From positions 34,927,263 to 34,991,262 of the forward strand of contig NC_083411.1 in assembly GCF_020745735.1 (NCBI RefSeq): a DNA stretch of 64,000 nucleotides. The letters run 5' to 3'. The position numbers and the translations under genes were made by a program. Source of the DNA: Hemiscyllium ocellatum. Taxonomy: Eukaryota. The notes below the pieces were generated by a model. It was not told the DNA's origin, did no database searches, and saw only the letters and a list, made by a program, of their open reading frames with translations. Positions 10,930 to 64,000 of the stretch are shown in pieces; position 1 is the stretch's first letter; each line of letters starts with the position of its first letter.

Positions 10930-13900
10930 CTAATGAGATGAATACAGCAAATCAGGAATCCAGAAGGTTCCAAATTAATCCTTGGGGAACATGGATTCAA
11001 ACCTAACCTCCATCTGGTGGAAGTTAAATTCAGTTGAAAGCCATTTTACCAGAGCAGCCAGGAGAGAAGAAGTGGTGAAGCGAGGGCTGCCGGGAAGGGT
11101 GAGTTTTCCCAAATTAAAAGGGACTTACCTCGAGAGTGGGGCCTCCATTTGCCGAGAGGTGCGAGGGAGGAGCGAAGGACTTCTAGGAAGTCGTATATTT
11201 GTGTGGTTGCATTACCCGAAACACTACTCGGGTAGTGTCTCCCACCCATCCTCCTCCTCTGACCAAAAAAAACGTTCTGTGCACCAGATCGGTAAGGTAA
11301 TGAGTTTATTTTTTATTCCTTATTTTTTCAACAGTCTCTTTGGGAATTTAGAATAGTGGGAATGGAGGTTAGGGCAGTTGCATGTTCCTCCTGCAGAACG
11401 TGGGAGGTAAGGGTCACCACGAGTGTCTCTGCTGACTACATCTGCAGGAAGTACGCCAATCTCCAGCTCGAAAACCACGTTAGGGAACTGGAGCTGGAAC
11501 TGGATGAACTTCGGATCATTCGGGAGGCAGAGGGAATTATCGAGAGGAGTTACAGGGAAGTAGTCACTCCTCAGGTACAAGAAAAAGGCAAATGGGTTAC
11601 AGTCAGGGGACAGAAGGGGAACCGGCAGGCAGTGCAGGGATCTCCTGTAGCCATTCCCCTCAACAATAAGTATACTGTTTTGGATACTGTTGGGGGATGG
11701 GGGAGGGGACTTACCAGGGGAAGGTAGTGGGGCACAGGGCTCTGGCACAGAGTCTGTCCCTGCTGCTCAGAAGGGAAGGAGGAAGAGGAGCAAAGCAGTA
11801 GTCATTGGGGACTCCATAGTTAGGGGCACAGATAGCAGGTTCTTGGGGACGTGAGAGACTCACGGTTGGTGTTTGCCTCCCAGGTGCCAGGGTTTGTGAT
11901 GTCTCTGATCGTGTATTTGGGATCCTTAAGGGGGAGTGACAGCAGCCCCAACTTGTTGTCCACATGGGCAACAACGACATAGGTAGGAAGAGAGGTGAGG
12001 ATTTAAGGCAGAAATTCAGGGAGCTAGGATGGAAGCTTAGAGCTAGGACAAACAGAATTGTTTCTCTGGTTTGTTGCCCATGCCACATGCTAGTGAAGCA
12101 AGGAATAGGGAGAGAGAGGAGTTGAACACGTGGCTACAGGAATGGTGCAGAAGAGAGGATTTTGGATCCTTGGATAATTGAGGCTCTTTCTGGGGTAGGT
12201 GGGACCTCTACAAGCAGGATGGTCTTCATCTGAACCAGAGGGGTACCAATATCTTTGGGGGGGGTGGAATTCGCTAAGGCTATTGGGGTGAGTTTAAACT
12301 AATCCAGCAGGGGGATGGGATCCAAAATTGTAGTTAGAGTATAGTAAAGATTGAGAGTAGGGAGGTCCAAAATCAAGTTTCAGGGATGCAGGATGGTACT
12401 GGCAAGCAAGAAGTTGGTTTGAAGTGTGTCTACTTCAACGCCAGAAGCATCAGGAATAAAGTGGGTGAACTTGCAGCATGGGTTGGTACCTGGGACTTCG
12501 ATGTTGTGGCCATTTCAGAGACATGGATAGAGCAGGGCCAGGAATGGTTGTTGCAGGTTCCAGGATTTAGATATTTCAGTAAGAACATCATAAAAGATGG
12601 TGTGGGGGGTTGGGGGGGTGGGGTCGCATTGTTGGTCAAGGACAGTATTACAGTTGCAAAAAGTATGTTTGGGTCTTGTCAACTGAGGTAGTATGGGCTG
12701 AGGTTAGAAACAGGGAAGGAGAGGTCACCCTGCTGGGAGTTTTCTATAGGCCTCCAAATAGTTCCATAGATGTAGAGGAAAGGATAGCAAAGATGATTCT
12801 CGATAGGAGTGAGAGAGACAGGGTAGTTGTCATGGGGGACTTCAACTTTCCAAATATTGACTGGGGACACTATAGTATGAGTACTATAGATGGGTCAGTT
12901 TTTGTCCAGTGTGATTAGGCAAGATTTAGGAAGCATAGGATGGGAAGGAAACTGCAGGGGATGGGCACTTTAGAAATGTGGAGCTTATTCAAGGAAAAGC
13001 TCCTGAGTGTCCTAGATAAGTATGTACCTGTCAGGCAGGGAGGAAGCTGTAGAGTGCGGGAGCCATGGTTTATGAAGGAAGCGGAATCTCTGGTCAAGAG
13101 GAAGAAGAAGGCTTATGTTAAGATGAGATGTGAAGGCTCAGTTAGGGCACTTGAGGGTTACAAGGTAGCCAGGAAAGACCTAAAGAGAGAGCTCAGATGG
13201 GCCAGGAGGAGACATGAGACGTTGCTGGCTGATAAGATCAGGGCAAACCCTAAGGCTTTCAATAGGTATTTAAGGAATAAAAGAATGATGAGAGTAAGAT
13301 TAGGGCCAATCAAGGATAGTAGTGGGAAGTTGTGTGTGGAGTCAGAGGAGATAGGGGAAGCACTTCATGAATATTTTTCGACAGTATTCACTCTAGAAAA
13401 TGACAATGTTGACGAGAAGAATACTGAGATGCAGGCTACTAGACTAGGTGTGATTGAGGTTCACAAGGAAGAGGTATTAGAAATCCTGAAGAGTGAAAAT
13501 AGATAAGTCCCCTGGGCTGGATGGGATTTATCCTAGGATCCTCTGGGAAGCTAGGGAGAAGATTGCCGAGCCTTTGGCATTGATCTTTAAATTGTCATTG
13601 TCTACAGGAATAGTGCCAGAAGACTGTTCAAGAAGGGGATTGGAGACAACCTTAGTTATTATGGATCAGTGAGCTTTACTTCAGTTGTTGGCAAAGTGTT
13701 GGAAAAGGTTATAAGGGATAGGATTTATAATCATCTAGAAAAGAATAATTTGATTAGGGATAGACAGCGCAGTTTTGAGAAGGGTAGGTAGTGCTTCACA
13801 AACCTTATTGAGTTCTTTGAGAAGATGACCAAACAGGTACATGGAATAGTGTAGGTTAGATGGGTTTCAGATTGGTATGACAGGTCGGCGCAACATCGAG

Positions 13901-17959: not shown

Positions 17960-18920
17960 CCTCATGGACAGTGGGCATCACTGGCTAGGCAACTATTTAT
18001 TGTCCATTTCCAATGCCATGGGGAAGTGGTGCTGAGCTCCCTTCTTGAATTGCTGCAGTCCTTGACTTGTTGCAAGGGAGTTCCAGGATTTTGACTCAGT
18101 AACAGTGAAGGAACAGCAGTATTGTTCTAAGTTAACATGCTGTGTGACTTGGAGGGGGATTTGCATGTGGTGTTCCCATACATCTGCGGTTTTTTTCCTA
18201 CATGGTAAGCGTCTCTGGCTTTGGAAGTGCTGTCAAGGGAGAATTGGTGAATTACTACAACAAATCTTGTTGTTTGCTCATACTGCAATCCTTGCGGGTA
18301 TCAATAATGAAACAAATAAATGATGTAAATGGTGAATGGGACTCCGTTCAAATGTGGGCGGCACGGTGGCACAGTGGTTAGCACTGCTGCCTCACAGCGC
18401 CTGAAGACCCGGGTTCAATTCCCGACTCAGGCGACTGACTGTGTGGAGTTTGCACGTTCTCCCCGTGTCTGCGTGGGTTTCCTCCGGGTGCTCCGGTTTC
18501 CTCCCACATTCCAAAGATGTGCGGGTCAGGTGAATTGGCCATGCTAAAATTGCCCGTAGTGTTAGGTAAGGGGTAATGTAGGGGTATGGGTGGGTTTCGC
18601 TTCGGCGGGTCGGTGTGGACTTGTTGGGCCGAAGGGCCTGTTTCCACACTGTAAGTCTAATCTAATCTAATCTAATCTAATCAAATGGACTGTTTTCTCC
18701 TGAATGGTGTCGAGTTTCTTGAGTGTTATTGAGCCGTGTTCAAGTAGACATGTGGAGACTATTCCATCACACTCTCGATCTGTGTCTTGTAGATAGTGAA
18801 CTGGCATTAGGCTGATAGGAGGTGAGATTCTCACCACAAAATCCATGGTTTCTGACCTGTTCTTGTAGCCACAGTGTGTACAAGGCATTTACATTTTAGC
18901 ATCTAGTCAATGAAAACTGC
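17960..18920 (-). mobile_element. Decayed CR1/L2-clade LINE 3' part sharing its tail with the DeuSINE-like SINE
   Basis: gtgggcatcactggctaggcaactatttattgtccat is antisense to the SINE tail. Same family as 22430-23680 (+). Confidence 0.55.
18356..18680 (+). mobile_element. Young HE1-type V-SINE, full length
   Basis: A box TGGCACAGTGG, B box GGTTCAATTCC, V-core, LINE-like 3' gggccgaagggcctgtttcc, (TCTAA)n tail, TSD tcaaatg (18348-18354 / 18681-18687). Confidence 0.93.
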
Positions 18921-19984: not shown

Positions 19985-22335
19985 TAGATCAGAGTGGTGC
20001 TGGAAAAGCACAGCAGTTCAGGCAGCATTCTAGGAGCAGGAACATCGACATTTCGGGTAAAAGCCCTTCATCAGGAATACAGACAGAGAGCCTGAAGGGT
20101 GGAAAGATAAATGAGAGGAGGGTGGGGGTGGGAAGAAAGTAGCATAGAGTACAATAAGTGAGTGGGGGAGGGTGGAGTGGATAGGTGGAAAGGAAGATAG
20201 GCAGGTAAGACAAGTCATGGGAACAGTGCTGAGCTGGAAGTTTGGAGCTGGGGTGAGGTGGGGGAAGGAGAAATGAGGAAACTGGTGAAGTCCACATTGA
20301 TGCCCTGGGGTTGAAGTGTTCCGAGATGGAAGATGAGGTGTTCTTCCTCCAGGCGAAGGGTGGTGAGGGAGCGGCAGTGAAGGAGGTCCAGGACCTCAAT
20401 TTCCTCAGTTGACTGGGAGGGGGAGTTGAAATGTTGGGCCACAGGGCGGTGTAGTTCATTGACAAGGGGTGTCCCAGGGATGTTCCCTAAAGTGCTCTGC
20501 TAGTAGGCGTCCAGTCTCCCCAATGTAGAGGAGACCGCATCAGGAGCAACGGATACAAGAAATGATATTGGTGGATGTGCAGGTAAAACTTTGATGGATG
20601 TGGAAGGCTCCTTTGGGGCCTTGGATGGAGGTGAGGGAGGAGGTGTGGGCACAGGTTTTGCAATTCCTGCGATGGCAGGGGAAGGTGCCAGAATGGGATG
20701 GTGGGTTGTTGGGGAGCGTGGACCTGACCAGGTAGTCATGAAGGGAACGGTCTTTGCGGAAGGCGGAAAGGGGTGGGGAGGGAAATATATCCCTGGTGGT
20801 GGGGTCCGTTTGGAGGTGGCGGAAATGTCAGCAGATGATTTGGATTATGCGAGGGTTGGTACGGTGGAAGGTGAGCACCAGGGGCATTCTGTCCTTGTTA
20901 CGGTTGGAGGAGTGGGGTCTGAGGGTGGAGGTGTGGGATGTGGATGAGATGCGTTGGAGGGCATCTTTAATCACGTGGGAAGGAAAATTGCGGTCTCTAA
21001 AGAAGGAGGCCATCTGGTGTGTTCTGTGATGGAACTGGTCCTCCTGGGAGCAGATACGGCAAAGGCGGAGGAATTGGGAATACGGAATGGCATTTTTGCA
21101 GGAGGTAGAGTGGGAAGAGGTATAAACCAGGTAGCTGTGGGAGTCGGTGGGTTTGTAAAAAATGTCGGTGTCAAGTCGGTTGTCATTAATGGAGATGGAG
21201 AGGTCCAGGAAGAGGAGGGAGGTGTCAGAGATGGTCCAGGTAAATTTAAGGTCAGGGTGGAATGTATTGGTGAAGTTGATGAATTGCTTAACCTCCTCGC
21301 GGGAGTATGAGGTGGCGTCAATGCAGTCATCAGTGTAGCGGAGAAAGAGGTGGGGAGTGATACTGGTGTAATTATGGAAGATGGACTATTCTATGTAGCC
21401 AACAAAGAGACAGGCATAGCTGGGGCCCATACGGGTGCCCATGGCTACCCCTTTGGTGTGGAGGAAGTGGGCGGATTCGAAGGAGAAATTGTTAAGGGTG
21501 AGGATCAGTTCGGCCAAACAAATGAGAGTGTCGGTAGAAGGGTACTGTTGGGCATGTCGGGAAAGGAAGAAACGGAGGGCTTGGAGGCCCTGGTCATGGC
21601 GGATGGAAGTGTAGAGGGACTGGATATCCATTGTGAAGATGAGGAGTTGGGGGCCAGGGAAATGGAAGTCTTGGTGGAGGTGGAGGGCATGGGTGGTGTC
21701 TCGAATGTATGTGGGGAGTTCCTGGACTAGGGGGCATAGGACAGTGTCGAGATAGGTAGAGATGAGTTCAGTGGGGCAGGATCATGTTGAGACAATTGAT
21801 CAGCCAGGATGGTCAGGCTTGTGGATCTTGGGAAGGAGCTAGAACCGGGCAGTGCGGGGTTCCCGGACTATGAGATTGGATGCTGTGGGTGGGAGATCTC
21901 CCGAGGTGATGAGATTCTGTATGGTCTGGAAGATGATGGTTTGGTGATGGAGGGTGGGGTCATGGTCGGGGTGGGGGGGGGGGGGGGGGGGTGGTAGGAA
22001 GAGGTGTCCTTGAGTTGGCGTCTGGCTTCCGCGGTGTACAGGTCAGAGAGCCAGACTACCACTGCGCCCCCTTTATCTGCTGGCTTGATGGTGAGGTCAG
22101 GATTGGAGCAGAGGGATTGGAGGGCTGCACATTGTGAGGGTGAGAGGTTGGAGTGGAGGAGGGTTGAGGCGGTTAATGTCCCGGAGGCAGTTAGAAATGA
22201 AGAGGTCGAGGGCGGATAATAGGCCAGCAGGGGCTGTCCAGGTGGATGCAATGTGTTGGAGGTGGGCGAAGGGGTCCTCGGAAGGTTGGTGGGAGTCCTG
22301 ATTGTAAAAGTAAGCTCGGAGGCGGAGGCGGCAGA
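19985..22335 (-). mobile_element. Penelope-like element, Neptune-type (RT, Cys linker, GIY-YIG), 5'-truncated and frameshifted
   Basis: IKPADKGGAVVVW (21868-22251), MDIQSLYTSI...GVAMGTRMGPSYA (21386-21631), RYTDD (~21330), FPCHRRNCKTC (~20642-20689), CIRCS*CGLLYIGETG (~20510-20580), 3' terminal repeat with hammerhead. Confidence 0.92.
20044..20078 (-). ncRNA. Type I hammerhead ribozyme motif (family A) in the PLE terminal repeat
   Basis: Minus strand ATTC-CTGATGA-A-GGGCTTTTACCC-GAAA-T-GTC-GATG: core intact, GUC triplet present. Confidence 0.7.
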
Positions 22336-22429
22336 ACTAAGTATACCCCAGCTAAGCTTTTCAAGTATCGCTCTAATACTGGCGTCCGCTTAACAGTTGG
22401 ATAATTGCTCAGGTATGGCCTACTCACAA

Positions 22430-27697: not shown

Positions 27698-28009
27698 GGG
27701 GTGGCACGGTGGCTCAATGGTTAGCACTGCAGCCTTACAGTGCCAGAGACCGAGGTTCAATTCCAGCCTCTGGTGACTGTCTGAATGAAGTTTGCACATT
27801 CTCCCTGTGTCTGCATGGGTTTTCTCCCACAGTCACAAAGATGTGCATGTTAGGTGAAATGGCCATGCTAAATTGCCCATAGTGATAGGTGCATTAGTCA
27901 GGGGTGAATGTAGAGGAATGGTTCTGGGTGCATTGCTCTTCAGAGGGTTGGTGTGGACTTGTTGGGCCGAAGGGCCTGTTTCCACACTGTAGGGAATATA
28001 ATCTAATCT
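27698..28009 (+). mobile_element. HE1-type V-SINE
   Basis: A and B boxes, V core, gggccgaagggcctgtttcc end, taatctaatct tail. Confidence 0.9.
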
Positions 28010-48382: not shown

Positions 48383-48705
48383 TTAGATTAGATTAGATTA
48401 CTTACAGTGTGGAAACAGGCCCTTCGGCCCAACAAGTCCACACCGACCCGCCGAAGCGCACCCACCCAGACCCATTCCCCTACATTTACCCCTGCACCTA
48501 ACACTACGGGCAACTTAGCACGGCCAATTCACCTAACCTGCACATTTTTGGACTGTGGGAGGAAACCGGAGCACCCGGAGGAAACCCCCGCAGACACAGG
48601 GAGAATGTGCAAACTCCACACAGTCAGTTGCCTGAGGTGGGAATTGAACCCAGGTCTCTGGTGCTGTGAGGCAGCAGTGCTAACCACTGTGCCACCGTGC
48701 CACCC
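48383..48705 (-). mobile_element. HE1-type V-SINE
   Basis: Reverse complement of the 18356 copy, with (TTAGA)n tail. Confidence 0.93.
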
Positions 48706-53304: not shown

Positions 53305-53601
53305 TTAGATTAGATTACTTACAGCGTGGAACCAGGCCTTTTGGCCCAACAAGTCCACACCGATCCTCCAAAGCGCAACCCACCTATTCCCCTACATTTA
53401 CCCCTTTACCTAACACTACGGGCAATTTAGCATGGCCAATTGACCTCACCTGCATATCTTTGGACTGTGGGAGGAAACTGGAGCACACCCACGCAGACAC
53501 AGGGAGAGTGTGCAAACTCCACTCAGTCAGTCGCCTGAATCGGGAATTGAACCCAGGTCTCTGGCGCTGTGAGACAGCAGTGCTAAACACTGTGCCACTG
53601 T
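53305..53601 (-). mobile_element. HE1-type V-SINE
   Basis: As above, with a small internal deletion. Confidence 0.9.
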
Positions 53602-58159: not shown

Positions 58160-58454
58160 GGGCAGCATGGTGGCACAGTGGTTAGCACTGTTGCTTCACA
58201 GCAGCAGAGACCTGGATTCAATTCCGGCCTCAGGCAACTGTCTGTGTGGAATTTGTACATTCGCCCTGTGTCTGTGTGGGTTTCCTCCCACAGTCCAAAA
58301 ATGTGCAGGTTAGATGAATTGGCTACGCTAAATTGCCCATAAAGTTAGGTGAAGGAGTAAAGGTAGGAGAATGGGTCTGGGTGGGTTGCCCTTCGGAGGG
58401 TCGGTATGGACTTGTTGGGCCGAAGGGCCTGCTTCCACACGGTAAGTAATCTAA
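58160..58454 (+). mobile_element. HE1-type V-SINE
   Basis: A and B boxes, V core, LINE-like 3' end. Confidence 0.9.
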
Positions 58455-59575: not shown

Positions 59576-59887
59576 ATATGTGCTCCCTCTTTATTCCGGA
59601 GCTGAGTTCTCAGATTTTTGTCTTTCACCAGTTCTATCTTTGTTAATTTTAACAGTGCTTTCATGGTTCTGATGCCCTTTTCAGCTTCAGGGATTCATTA
59701 AGGATCTAAGATGGAAATATCAACTGGAAATTCACTATTGGCTCATGTCTGTTGCATGTCTGAAATTTTTGCTATTGTCAGTGACGTAGTTGCATCTAAC
59801 TGAACTATAGAACATAGAACATAGAAGGATACAGCGCAGTACAGGCCCTTCGGCCCTCGATGTTGCGCCGACCGAGTCCTACCTAAC

Positions 59888-62791
59888 CTATACTAGCCCA
59901 ATAACTTCCAAATGCCTATCCAATGCCCGCTTAAATGAACATAAAGAAGGAGAGTTCACCACTGATACGGGCAGGGCATTCCATGAACTCACAACCCGCT
60001 GTGTGAAGAATCTACCCCTAACATCTGTCCTATACCTACCACCCCTTAATTTAAAGCTATGTCCCCTAGTAACACCTGACTCCATCATCGGTAAAAGGTT
60101 CTTAGTATCTACCCTATCTAAACCCCTAATCATCTTATACACTTCTATCAGATCTCCCCTAAACCTTCTCTTCTCCAATGAGAACAGCCCCAAGTGCCTC
60201 AGCCTTTCCTCGTAAGATTTTCCTACCATTCCAGGCAACATCCTGGTAAACCTCCTCTGCACTCGTTCTAAAGCTTCCACATCCTTCCTATAGTATGGCG
60301 ACCAAAACTGCACACAATACTCCAGATGAGGCCTCACCAGAGTCTTATACAACTGCAACATGACCTCAGGACTCCGGAACTCAATTCCTCTGCCAATAAA
60401 GCCCAGTACACCATATGCCTTCCTCACAGCACTATTTACCTGGGTGGCAACTTTCAGAGATCTGTGCACATAGACACCAAGATCCCTCTGCTCATCCACA
60501 CTACCAAGTAGCCTACCATTAGCCCAGTAATCCATCATCTTGTTATTCCTACCAAAGTGAACGACTTCGCACTTAGCTACATTGAATTCCATTTGCCACA
60601 TTTCCGCCCAGCTCTGCAACTTATCTATATCCCGCTGTAACCTACCACTTCCTTCCTCACTATCCACAACTCCACCGACTTTTGTGTCATCCGCAAACTT
60701 GCTTACCCAGCTTTCAAGTCCTTCCTCTAGATCATTTATAAAGATAACAAAAAGCAATGGTCCCAAAACAGATCCTTGTGGTACACCGCTAGTAACTGCG
60801 CTCCAAGATGAACATAATCCATCAACTACTACCCTCTGTCTCCTTCCAGCCAGCCAATTCCTAATCCAAACCTCTAATGTATCCTCAATGCCATACCTCC
60901 GAAGTTTTAGCATTAGCCTACCATGGGGAACCTTATCGAACGCCTTACTAAAATCCATATACACAACATCTACTGCTTTACCCTCATCCACTTCCTTAGT
61001 CACCTTCTCAAAGAACTCATCAAGGTTTGTGAGGCACGACCTGCCCTTCACAAAACCATGCTGGCTATCCCTGATCACGTTATTCCTACCCAGATGTTCA
61101 TAAATCTTATCCCTTACCATTCTCTCTAAGACTTTGCCCACCACTGAAGTCAGACTCACTGGCCTATAGTTACTAGGGCTATCCCTACTCCCTTTCTTGA
61201 ACAATGGGACCACATTCGCTATCCTCCAGTCCTCTGGTACTATTCCCGTTGACAATGACGACATAAAAATCCAGGCCAATGGCTCTGCTATCTCCTCCCT
61301 AGCTTCCCATAGGATCCTGGGGTAAATGCCATCAGGCCCAGGAGACTTATCTATATTCATCCTTTCCAATATTCCCAAAACCTCTTCCCTGCATATTTCC
61401 AGGGCATCCATTCTAATTATTTGTGATTCCATATTCACATCAGCAACAGTGTCCTGTTCCTGAGTGAATACTGATGAAAAGTACTGATTTAATGTCTCTC
61501 CAATCTCCTCCGCCTCCACACACAACTTCCCACTACTATCCTTGACTGGACCGATACCTACCCTAGTCATCCTTTTATTCTTGACATACCTATAGAAAGC
61601 CTTTGGGTTTTCCCTAATCCTACCAGCTAAAGACTTTTCATGTCCCCTTCTCGCTTCTCTTAGCTCCCTCTTTAGCTCCTTCCTGGCTACCTTATAACTC
61701 TCAATCGCCCCTACTGAACCTTCACGCCTCATCTTTACATATGCCGCCTTCTTCCCTTTCACAAGGGACTCCAATTCCTTACTAAACCACGGCTGCCTCA
61801 CAAGGCCCTTTACACCATGCCTGACTGGTACATACCTATCGAGGACACGCAGTAGCTGCTCCTTGAACAATCCCCACATCTCATTAGTGTTCTTCTCTTG
61901 AAGCCTGTTTTTCCAATCCACACAACCTAAGTCATGCCTCACTGCATCATAATTTCCCTGCCCCCAGCTATAGCTCTTGCCCTGCGGCGCACGATTATCC
62001 CTCTCCATCACTAAAATAAAAGTCACCGAGTTGTGGTCACTGTCCCCGAAGTGCTCACCTACCTCCAAGTCTAACACCTGGCCTGGTTCATTACCTAGAA
62101 CCAAATCCAATATAGCCTACCCTCTTGTTGGCCTGTCGACATATTGTGTCAGGAAACCCTCCTGCACACATTGTACAAACACCGACCCATCTAATGAACT
62201 CGAGCTATAGCTCTCCCAGTCAATATCTGGGAAGTTAAAGTCCCCCATAACAACCACCCTGCTACCTTCACTCTTTTCCTGAATCATCCTCGCAATATTA
62301 TCCTCTACTTCTCTAGGACTATTAGGAGGCCTGTAGAAAACGCCTAACAGGGTGACCTCACCTTTCCTATTTCTAACCTCAGCCCAAACTACCTCAGATG
62401 GCAAGTCCTCTTCCATCGTCCATTCCACTGCTGTGATACTGTCTTTGACAAGTAATGCCACGCCTCCCCCTTTTTTACCCCCATGTCTGATCCTACTAAA
62501 ACATTTGAACCCTGGAACGTGCAACAGCCATTCTTGTCCCTGTTCTACCCACGTCTCTGTAATGGCCACAACATCGAAGTCCCAGGTACCAACCCACGCT
62601 GCAAGTTCACCTACCTTATTCCTTATACTTCTGGCATTGAAGTATACACACTTCAATCCACCTTTCTGGTTACAGGCACCCTCCTTAGAGATCGCTGCAT
62701 TATTCCTAACCTCCCTACACTCAAGGTCCTGTACCCTAAAGCTACAGTCCTGGTTCCCATGCCCCCGCGGAGTTAGTTTAAACCCTCCCAA
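59888..62791 (-). pseudogene. CR1 ORF2 (APE endonuclease plus reverse transcriptase) with one in-frame premature TAG at 62117-62119
   Basis: ORFs 62117-62791 and 59888-62110 are in frame: [49 protein letters not shown] and FADD are all present. Confidence 0.95.
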
Positions 62792-63463
62792 AGAGCACTA
62801 GCAAACCTCCCCCCAAGGACACTGGTGCCCCTCAGGTTCAGGTGTAGCCCATCCTTTTTATAGAGGTCCCACCTTCCCCAGAAAGGACCCCAGTTGTCCA
62901 AAAACCGGAATCCCTCCCTCCTGCACCATCCCTGTAGCCACGCATTTAACTGCTCTCTCTCCCTATTCCTCGACTCTCTATCACGTGGCACGGGTAACAA
63001 ACCAGAGACTACAACTCTGTTTGTTCTAACTCTGAGCTTCCAACCTAGCTCCCTGAAAGCCTGTCTGACATCCTCACCCTTCTTCCTACCTATATCGTTG
63101 GTGCCAATGTGGACCACGATCTGGGGCTGCTCCCCCTCCCCCTTAAGGACCCGGAAAACACGATCAGCGACATCACGTACCCTTGCACCTGGGAGGCAAC
63201 ATACCAAACGTGAGTCCCTGTCGCCCCCACAAAACCGTCTGTCTGTCCCCCTCACTATCGAGTCCCCAAGAACTATTGCTCTACCTTTCTCCACCCTACC
63301 CTTCTGAGCAACGGGGCCAGGCTCCGTGCCAGAGGCCTGAACCTCGTTGCTTGCCCCTGGTAAGTCATCCCCCCCACAAGTATCCAAAACGGTATACTTG
63401 TTCTTGAGGGGAATGACCGCAGGGGGTCCCTGCACTGGCTTCCTCCTCCCACTCCCCCTCACT
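62773..63463 (-). CDS. CR1 ORF1 C-terminal SGNH/GDSL esterase domain (5'-truncated)
   Basis: GDSIVRG, LPGARV, HIGTND and DGLHL motifs; ends EGLN*. Confidence 0.9.
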
Positions 63464-64000
63464 ATCTGGGATGCCTTGGATAAATTCACTGCTGCCAATT
63501 CTTCTTGATGGTATTGGTTTAGTTTACCGATTTATTGAGCTGAGATGAAACCTTTGGCAGTAAATAGGCTTGCTTTGATAAAGTGTATAGATTTGTTACA
63601 TAATACTTAATAGCTACTTATATTACATACAAGATATATGATAGTCTCTTGTGAGACATCTGGCTCAACATAATAGTAAGGACATGTTACTGTTAGCTCT
63701 ATGGAATTAAGCACTAGAAGAACAATTTAGAGAGATCCTTCATAACACACTGGTAAGGACCCATGAACATTTGTTAGCATCATTGCAAAATTGAGATTTA
63801 TGTATGCTCTTCTATTTCAAAACAAAACTTCTGACTCTGTGAGACAATGTTTCCAGAATTTGCTTGCCCTTGTACTGGATTGTTACGTGCAATTTTCCAT
63901 TGATTTTTAATTTGATCCCTTCCGGACTGTTATTCTGTTATTAATAACAATGGTGCCTTGTCTGATAAAGCTATTATACTTACATATTTATTGATATTCT

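Follow-up and report, generated by a model that had tools for sequence, protein, structure and literature searches.

The window, i.e. the whole analysed stretch of 64,000 nucleotides of the Hemiscyllium ocellatum genome (contig NC_083411.1), carries on its minus strand a copy of a CR1 LINE and on its plus strand a decayed CR1 copy of a second family. Esterase-type CR1 elements are the dominant retrotransposons in most vertebrates. The features of the two copies are as follows, with the evidence given in brackets.

59802..63466, minus strand: CR1 LINE copy of the young family 1, 5'-truncated (99.56% identity to the longer copy L256 over 3665 nt)
62773..63466, minus strand: 3' part of ORF1, SGNH esterase, ending in ...WEGLN-stop (Pfam Lipase_GDSL_2, E 2e-14)
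62779..62785, minus strand: overlapping heptamer G_GGU_UUA in the ORF1 phase, lineage-specific and non-conserved (sequence comparison)
62776..62782, minus strand: slippery heptamer U_UUA_AAC in the ORF1 phase (sequence; conserved among families)
62773..62775, minus strand: ORF1 stop codon UAA, immediately 3' of the heptamer (sequence)
62756..62766, minus strand: G-tract, candidate stimulator, GGGGG-CAU-GGG (elsewhere GGGGG-WW-GGG), about 10-20 nt past the heptamer (alignment)
62657..62782, minus strand: linker of 42 codons, open only in the -1 frame and without AUG (frame scan)
62117..62656, minus strand: APE endonuclease from its start to a copy-specific nonsense codon (Pfam Exo_endo_phos; alignment with human L1 endonuclease)
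59888..62116, minus strand: remaining ORF2 including the reverse transcriptase (Pfam RVT_1, E 6e-35)
59802..59830, minus strand: (TTCTATG) repeat forming the 3' tail, without poly(A) (sequence)
12293..12320, plus strand: the same junction (TTTAAAC TAA and G-tract) in the decayed copy of the second family (sequence)

The element is a canonical vertebrate CR1, with an SGNH esterase in ORF1, an APE endonuclease and a reverse transcriptase in ORF2, a microsatellite tail at the 3' end and frequent 5' truncation. The ORF1 fragment in the window matches the ORF1 esterase of PDB 4c1b at E 3e-24, its closest named relatives come from sharks and rays, and full-length ORF1 in other family 1 copies encodes 308 aa. 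By eye, the junction also resembles CR1-labelled rows in the part of the PMC13343379 supplement that was available. The window copy itself is dead. It is truncated at position 63466 and carries a private stop, TAG at 62119-62117, where other copies have GAG; therefore the family and not this copy is the subject of the analyses below. The second-family copy is decayed and almost full length (11360-13860, plus strand).

The minus strand from 62788 to 62773 reads GAG GGT TTA AAC TAA. On re-reading, the claim of an earlier note on this DNA that ORF1 ends with a phased U_UUA_AAC directly before its stop proved correct. The same note described two overlapping phased heptamers; both are present in the window copy, but G_GGU_UUA was found in only 4/6 shark families and in none of 11 metagenome loci, and only U_UUA_AAC is conserved. 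The -1 frame opens past a TAG at 62800-62798, five codons upstream of the heptamer, with no ATG in between, and its translation FKLTPRG...LKCVYFNARS...ITETW continues into the endonuclease. The asparagine of the NARS motif lies at 62638 and the glutamate of ETW at 62557, while the first in-frame ATG of ORF2 is found at 62416-62414. Thus, as the note had stated, the first AUG lies beyond both motifs; of the span it had proposed (62640..62800), the end was right, but the start-codon argument reaches outside it, into the endonuclease. The ATG is codon 123 counted from the heptamer, in L256 as well, and lies 47 codons past the glutamate aligned with E43 of the human L1 endonuclease, a catalytic residue. 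In L256, the -1 frame is open for 964 codons.

The sequence TTTAAAC alone is common, occurring 28 times when the two strands of the window are counted together, and the heptamer exceeds chance only in its phase, position and conservation. That a frequent 7-mer ends a decayed repeat by mere coincidence would agree with this number and with the dead state of the copy, but it is very improbable, as six families and also distant hosts share the phase, place and frame, the 71 nt preceding the heptamer being only about 35-60% identical between the shark and the metagenome groups.

All six CR1 families detected in the shark genome have the phased TTTAAAC and the endonuclease in the -1 frame. Family 1 retained the exact heptamer in 30/30 best DNA matches (one of them the window copy) and in 30/30 protein matches; family 2, represented in the window at 12293, in 29/30; and family 3 in 20/20, with a second, largely overlapping set also giving 20/20. 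The stop codon of family 3 is placed one codon later, and its ORF1 (query P0066) is about 42% identical to that of family 1. Families 4 and 5 were derived from a random 400 kb of genome sequence, in which six esterase ends comprised three intact heptamers, one decayed and two partial. A distant query without the motif gave 122 matches, from which 100 copies were taken after the exclusion of 17 (already sampled, known family 3 or duplicates) and five more. In this set of mostly decayed copies, the exact heptamer occurs in 71/100, in phase in 68; by group, it is found in 54 copies of family 6 (n = 72), 16 of family 3 (n = 19) and one of the singletons (n = 9). No alternative heptamer occurs more than three times in 71 copies of family 6, and the site decays at the same rate as its flanks, as expected of mutation after insertion from an intact master.

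In the 100 old copies, the endonuclease was in the -1 frame in 42, in the 0 frame in 29 and in the +1 frame in 22, and seven had no endonuclease match. The commonest spacings between the heptamer and the endonuclease correspond to the -1 frame: a visual count gave 16 copies of family 6 at 125 nt, and nine copies of family 3 have 185 nt. Length changes concentrate at the G-tract in the old copies (L260-L359), with visible indels in the G-runs, and such changes may scramble the apparent frame relation of ORF1 and ORF2 and obscure the -1 relation when a consensus is built.

Outside the shark genome, a set of 54 metagenome loci included 16 vertebrate-type CR1 sequences covering the ORF1 end, which presumably are of avian origin; the remaining loci ended before the ORF1 end, were bacterial or belonged to other elements. 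The heptamer is present in 14 of the 16 and altered in L117 and L121, so that the survey of CR1 ORF1 ends suggested in the earlier note returned a phased TTTAAAC in every shark family and in most metagenome ends. It is absent from the esterase-bearing L2-like metagenome loci L120, L127, L147 and L151. In the PMC13343379 supplement, sampled as motif-selected sequence stretches of 400 characters, TTTAAACTA was seen by eye at the CR1 ORF1-ORF2 junction in 16/23 matches, mostly followed by the G-tract, a count that full sequences could change. The junction rows belong to alligator, crocodile, bowfin, bullfrog, chimaera, stingray, coelacanth, sawfish, catshark and dogfish, and the same stretches held one further TTTAAAC row and no other heptamer at an ORF1 end. 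ORF1 proteins ending in LN include entries from Xenopus, Hyla, snake and turtle. The search of viral contigs with three alignments and one pattern as queries returned no relatives, and the search of prokaryote genomes gave 29 loci with unrelated bacterial SGNH hydrolases only, which were left out.

The codon test was performed on 19 representatives, five shark families and 14 metagenome loci; L113 and L154 were excluded owing to upstream indels, and L121 was counted despite being out of register. The T before the leucine codon is present in 19/19, after seven different preceding amino acids, and the leucine codon is TTA in 19/19 and the asparagine codon AAC in 17/17. By comparison, TTA accounts for 1/56 codons across four other columns with a leucine majority. 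From the codon usage of each element, the heptamer triple would arise by chance in 0.2-3% per lineage; these counts are not independent trials, since the lineages share ancestry (two pairs are 88-90% identical). Taken at the level of codons, the constraint at the heptamer acts on nucleotides, and the site has the character of a recoding-type signal kept deeply at the CR1 ORF1 end, which on these comparisons we regard as real.

A similar pattern was visible in proteins. Among 145 esterase homologues with a DGLHL motif near the end, 92 finish in LN, and 91 of these are compatible with U_UUA_AAC. In 30 of the other 53, against 10.9 expected, the tripeptide at the corresponding position is compatible with a slippery site: eight end in QGN, which fits G_GGA_AAC, and five have xKN at one offset, which fits A_AAA_AAC. 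At the protein level, these ends predict heptamer swaps. The QGN ends belong to P0135, P0137, P0140, P0149, P0150, P0153, P0184 and P0220 and the xKN ends to P0155, P0176, P0198, P0226 and P0235, all distant eukaryotic esterase ORF1s.

The heptamer could also be kept for another reason, either as the Leu-Asn C-terminus of the esterase or as a DNA or RNA signal, for example a TTTAAA of the TATA or poly(A) type, with ORF2 made from a separate or spliced transcript. The leucine and asparagine are indeed invariant at the protein level, and TTTAAA resembles signals of both kinds; however, protein constraint cannot fix synonymous bases, which argues against the C-terminus reading, and the solved esterase of the ZfL2-1 type aligns only up to residue 299 of 308. 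A separate ORF2 transcript would still be AUG-less in five families. Weaker evidence comes from four possibly-RNA runs, which are contigs of low share and cover relatives only: no joint or indel recurs there at the heptamer; in these four of 18 runs (share 0.08-0.14), no variant falls inside 62770-62785 among 40 of the 173 rows listed. We consider this explanation improbable.

The linker between the heptamer and the endonuclease has 33-89 codons and is open in the -1 frame in 15/16 representatives, which had been selected because their endonuclease motif lies in this frame (shuffle probability 0.006-0.28 each). The +1 frame is stopped in 16/16, and the -1 frame is closed within 1-5 codons upstream of the heptamer in 9/16. 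No AUG is present in the linkers of families 1, 2, 4, 5 and 6 or in those of L129 and L131, while family 3 and 7/9 metagenome representatives have an in-frame AUG within the linker or at its end: 5 nt past the stop in L112, L113, L116 and L119, and later in family 3, L114, L122 and L130. A near-cognate start is likewise not conserved, with TTG, CTC or TTA at the same place and none of them in L324.

As some lineages keep a near AUG, ribosomes might instead stop at the end of ORF1 and restart at a nearby codon, AUG or not, that is in frame with ORF2, with the heptamer and the G-tract as the signal. Reinitiation has been proposed for L1, whose ORF2 is thought to be AUG-independent in its start (PMC5009743, as far as the part consulted goes), and in families 1 and 5, a 0-frame AUG within the G-tract begins a 35-codon ORF whose UGA overlaps a UUG preceding the endonuclease. 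However, this mini-ORF has only 9 codons in family 2 and 11 in family 4, families 3 and 6 and 9/9 metagenome representatives lack it at that place, and the UUG is replaced by CTC or TTA elsewhere, so neither the 0-frame AUG nor a UUG start was kept as a candidate. Five shark families have no AUG, and a restart leaves the phased X_XXY_YYZ, the linker open from the heptamer and the QGN and KN swaps unexplained. Overall, we judge reinitiation unlikely, yet less so than the two alternatives discussed above. The four loci with the AUG 5 nt past the stop have the heptamer as well and could use two routes to ORF2.

Given a conserved heptamer, an ORF2 lying one base off and often no start codon, ribosomes probably slip back by one base. 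We therefore propose, with a probability of about 0.8, that esterase-type CR1 expresses ORF2 by programmed -1 frameshifting as an ORF1-ORF2 fusion of 1270 aa. The signal consists of an X_XXY_YYZ heptamer in the upstream phase, a -1 ORF open from the heptamer and synonymous conservation; the earlier note's proposal of such a shift gains from the phased heptamer in six families, the nucleotide constraint, the open linker and the lack of an AUG in five of six families. Under this proposal, most ribosomes would finish ORF1 at the UAA and yield the 308-aa, 35-kDa protein (34.9 kDa as computed for L256). A minority would pause on U_UUA_AAC with Leu-tRNA on UUA and Asn-tRNA on AAC, slip to UUU/AAA and read on through ...GLN-LTPRG..., the variable linker, the endonuclease and the reverse transcriptase, giving in L256 the predicted 1270-aa, 145-kDa fusion (144.7 kDa computed). 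Tandem slippage is an established mechanism. It yields ...E-G-L-N-L-T-P-R-G, and the trans-frame peptide FKLTPRG given in the earlier note has to be corrected accordingly, FK being merely the -1 reading of the heptamer. A search for natural in-frame ORF1-ORF2 fusions gave two matches, both of which look like gene models. Against a need for the frameshift, ORF1 has been lost in many lineages of the CR1 group, according to the part of PMC13343379 consulted, and ORF2 can therefore function unfused.

The pause may come from the G-tract, with the adjacent stop contributing through its slow decoding. Of the 18 representatives with sequence there, 17-18 have G at positions +11..+14 and 15-17 at positions +18..+20. 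The -1 frame glycine codons of the tract are GGG in 13/16 and 14/16, against a GGG usage of 20-37%, for which reason we regard the tract as a nucleotide signal. This fixed position strengthens the suggestion in the earlier note that the G-rich tract could be the stimulator. The note had also seen no convincing downstream pseudoknot, and nested folding and duplex scans agree, as they revealed no stable conserved RNA structure 5-9 nt downstream, the mark of structure-stimulated frameshifting. Local folds of 11 downstream stretches contained no conserved hairpin, the z-scores of nine 110-nt downstream folds ranged from -1.5 to +1.7 (+0.7 for the window copy), and no shared long-range partner of the G-tract was found in 20 elements, the best partners varying between families. 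A three-tier quadruplex motif occurs in 0/16 and a two-tier one in 8/16, the latter also in 36/174 ordinary ORF2 windows. As in the protein-stimulated type, a single-stranded motif, here the G-tract, is conserved some 10-11 nt downstream. By analogy, it would most likely serve as a protein-binding site and less likely as a weak two-tier quadruplex. Two other candidates were rejected: a C-rich patch of proline codons about 650 nt upstream, which recurs in some elements as a possible G-tract partner without support, and a branch-point-like ACUAAC signal, which is confined to family 1.

Among known systems, the putative CR1 shift resembles the retroviral gag-pol shift, but appears to work without the downstream structure. 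The retroviral and coronaviral sites make use of a downstream pseudoknot or stem-loop at a distance of 5-9 nt. CR1 shares with them (e.g., the U_UUA_AAC of IBV) the heptamer, its phase at the end of a structural ORF and a start-less polymerase ORF in the -1 frame, as far as they are described in the consulted part of PMC5009743, whereas it has no conserved downstream structure and its host is a non-LTR element. According to the same part of that source, the heptamers most prone to shifting include U_UUA_AAC, G_GGA_AAC and A_AAA_AAC, the non-LTR cases treated are HeT-A, TART and L1, and PRRSV has a protein-binding stimulator 11 nt 3' of its shift site. The PRRSV nsp2 site (nsp1beta and poly(C)-binding protein) and CR1 both have a short motif without structure that keeps a constant spacing of about 11 nt from the shift site; the CR1 motif, known from sequence alone, is G-rich and not C-rich, and the heptamer differs. 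TRE5-A and TRE3-A of Dictyostelium are, like CR1, APE-RT LINEs, and require a -1 frameshift for ORF2 according to a figure legend (PMC5911963), but, as far as a review statement allows the comparison, they are L1-like amoebal elements without an esterase. Mammalian L1 likewise has a bicistronic LINE RNA with low ORF2 output, but its ORFs do not overlap, and, in the sources as far as consulted, its ORF2 protein is separate and made by unusual initiation and not by recoding.

The word "frameshift" occurs 0 times in the main texts of the CR1 papers PMC13343379, PMC4316615 and PMC3905857, and no proposal of CR1 frameshifting was found in the literature covered, including the consulted part of PMC5006619; CR1 papers from the 1990s and Kapitonov and Jurka (2003), outside that coverage, may contain a passing mention. 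How LINEs produce ORF2 is a long-open question, with a vague answer even for L1. If true, a retrovirus-like frameshift in CR1 would set the ratio of ORF1 to ORF2, place the esterase and the coiled coil on the reverse transcriptase and explain both the AUG-less ORF2 annotations and the difficulty of calling intact CR1 copies. The CR1 signal spans 30 nt and is accessible to ordinary reporter assays. If a structure-free G-rich stimulator is conserved across jawed vertebrates, it would add a new type to the known frameshift enhancers, and the host might control CR1 activity through it. A wider reading, which we find doubtful but put forward tentatively, is that the CR1 ORF1-ORF2 fusion pre-dates the shark-bird split, that a protein bound to the G-tract drives the shift and that distant animal relatives use G_GGA_AAC and A_AAA_AAC; a host or element protein on a structure-free G-tract would then represent protein-stimulated frameshifting outside viruses.

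Several minor observations concern the databases and the rest of the window. Two CR1 ORF1 homologues, P0006 (listed under Pseudomonas aeruginosa, with 73% identity to the shark ORF1) and P0069 (listed under a frog parasite), are probably contamination by host DNA. CR1 ORF1 sequence was also present inside the gene models P0030, P0271 and P0060, named ribosomal protein S24, hydroxyacid oxidase 2 and nuclear receptor coactivator 5, respectively, which are likely misannotated or contain exonised repeats. On the minus strand of the window, at 20500-22400, broken RT ORFs bear YTDD and GVAMG motifs, which we take to be a Penelope-like element. An interspersed repeat of 300 nt, which also matches the flank of L256, occurs five times (58161-58454, 53307-53601, 48384-48700, 27704-28009 and 18357-18674) and is probably a SINE.
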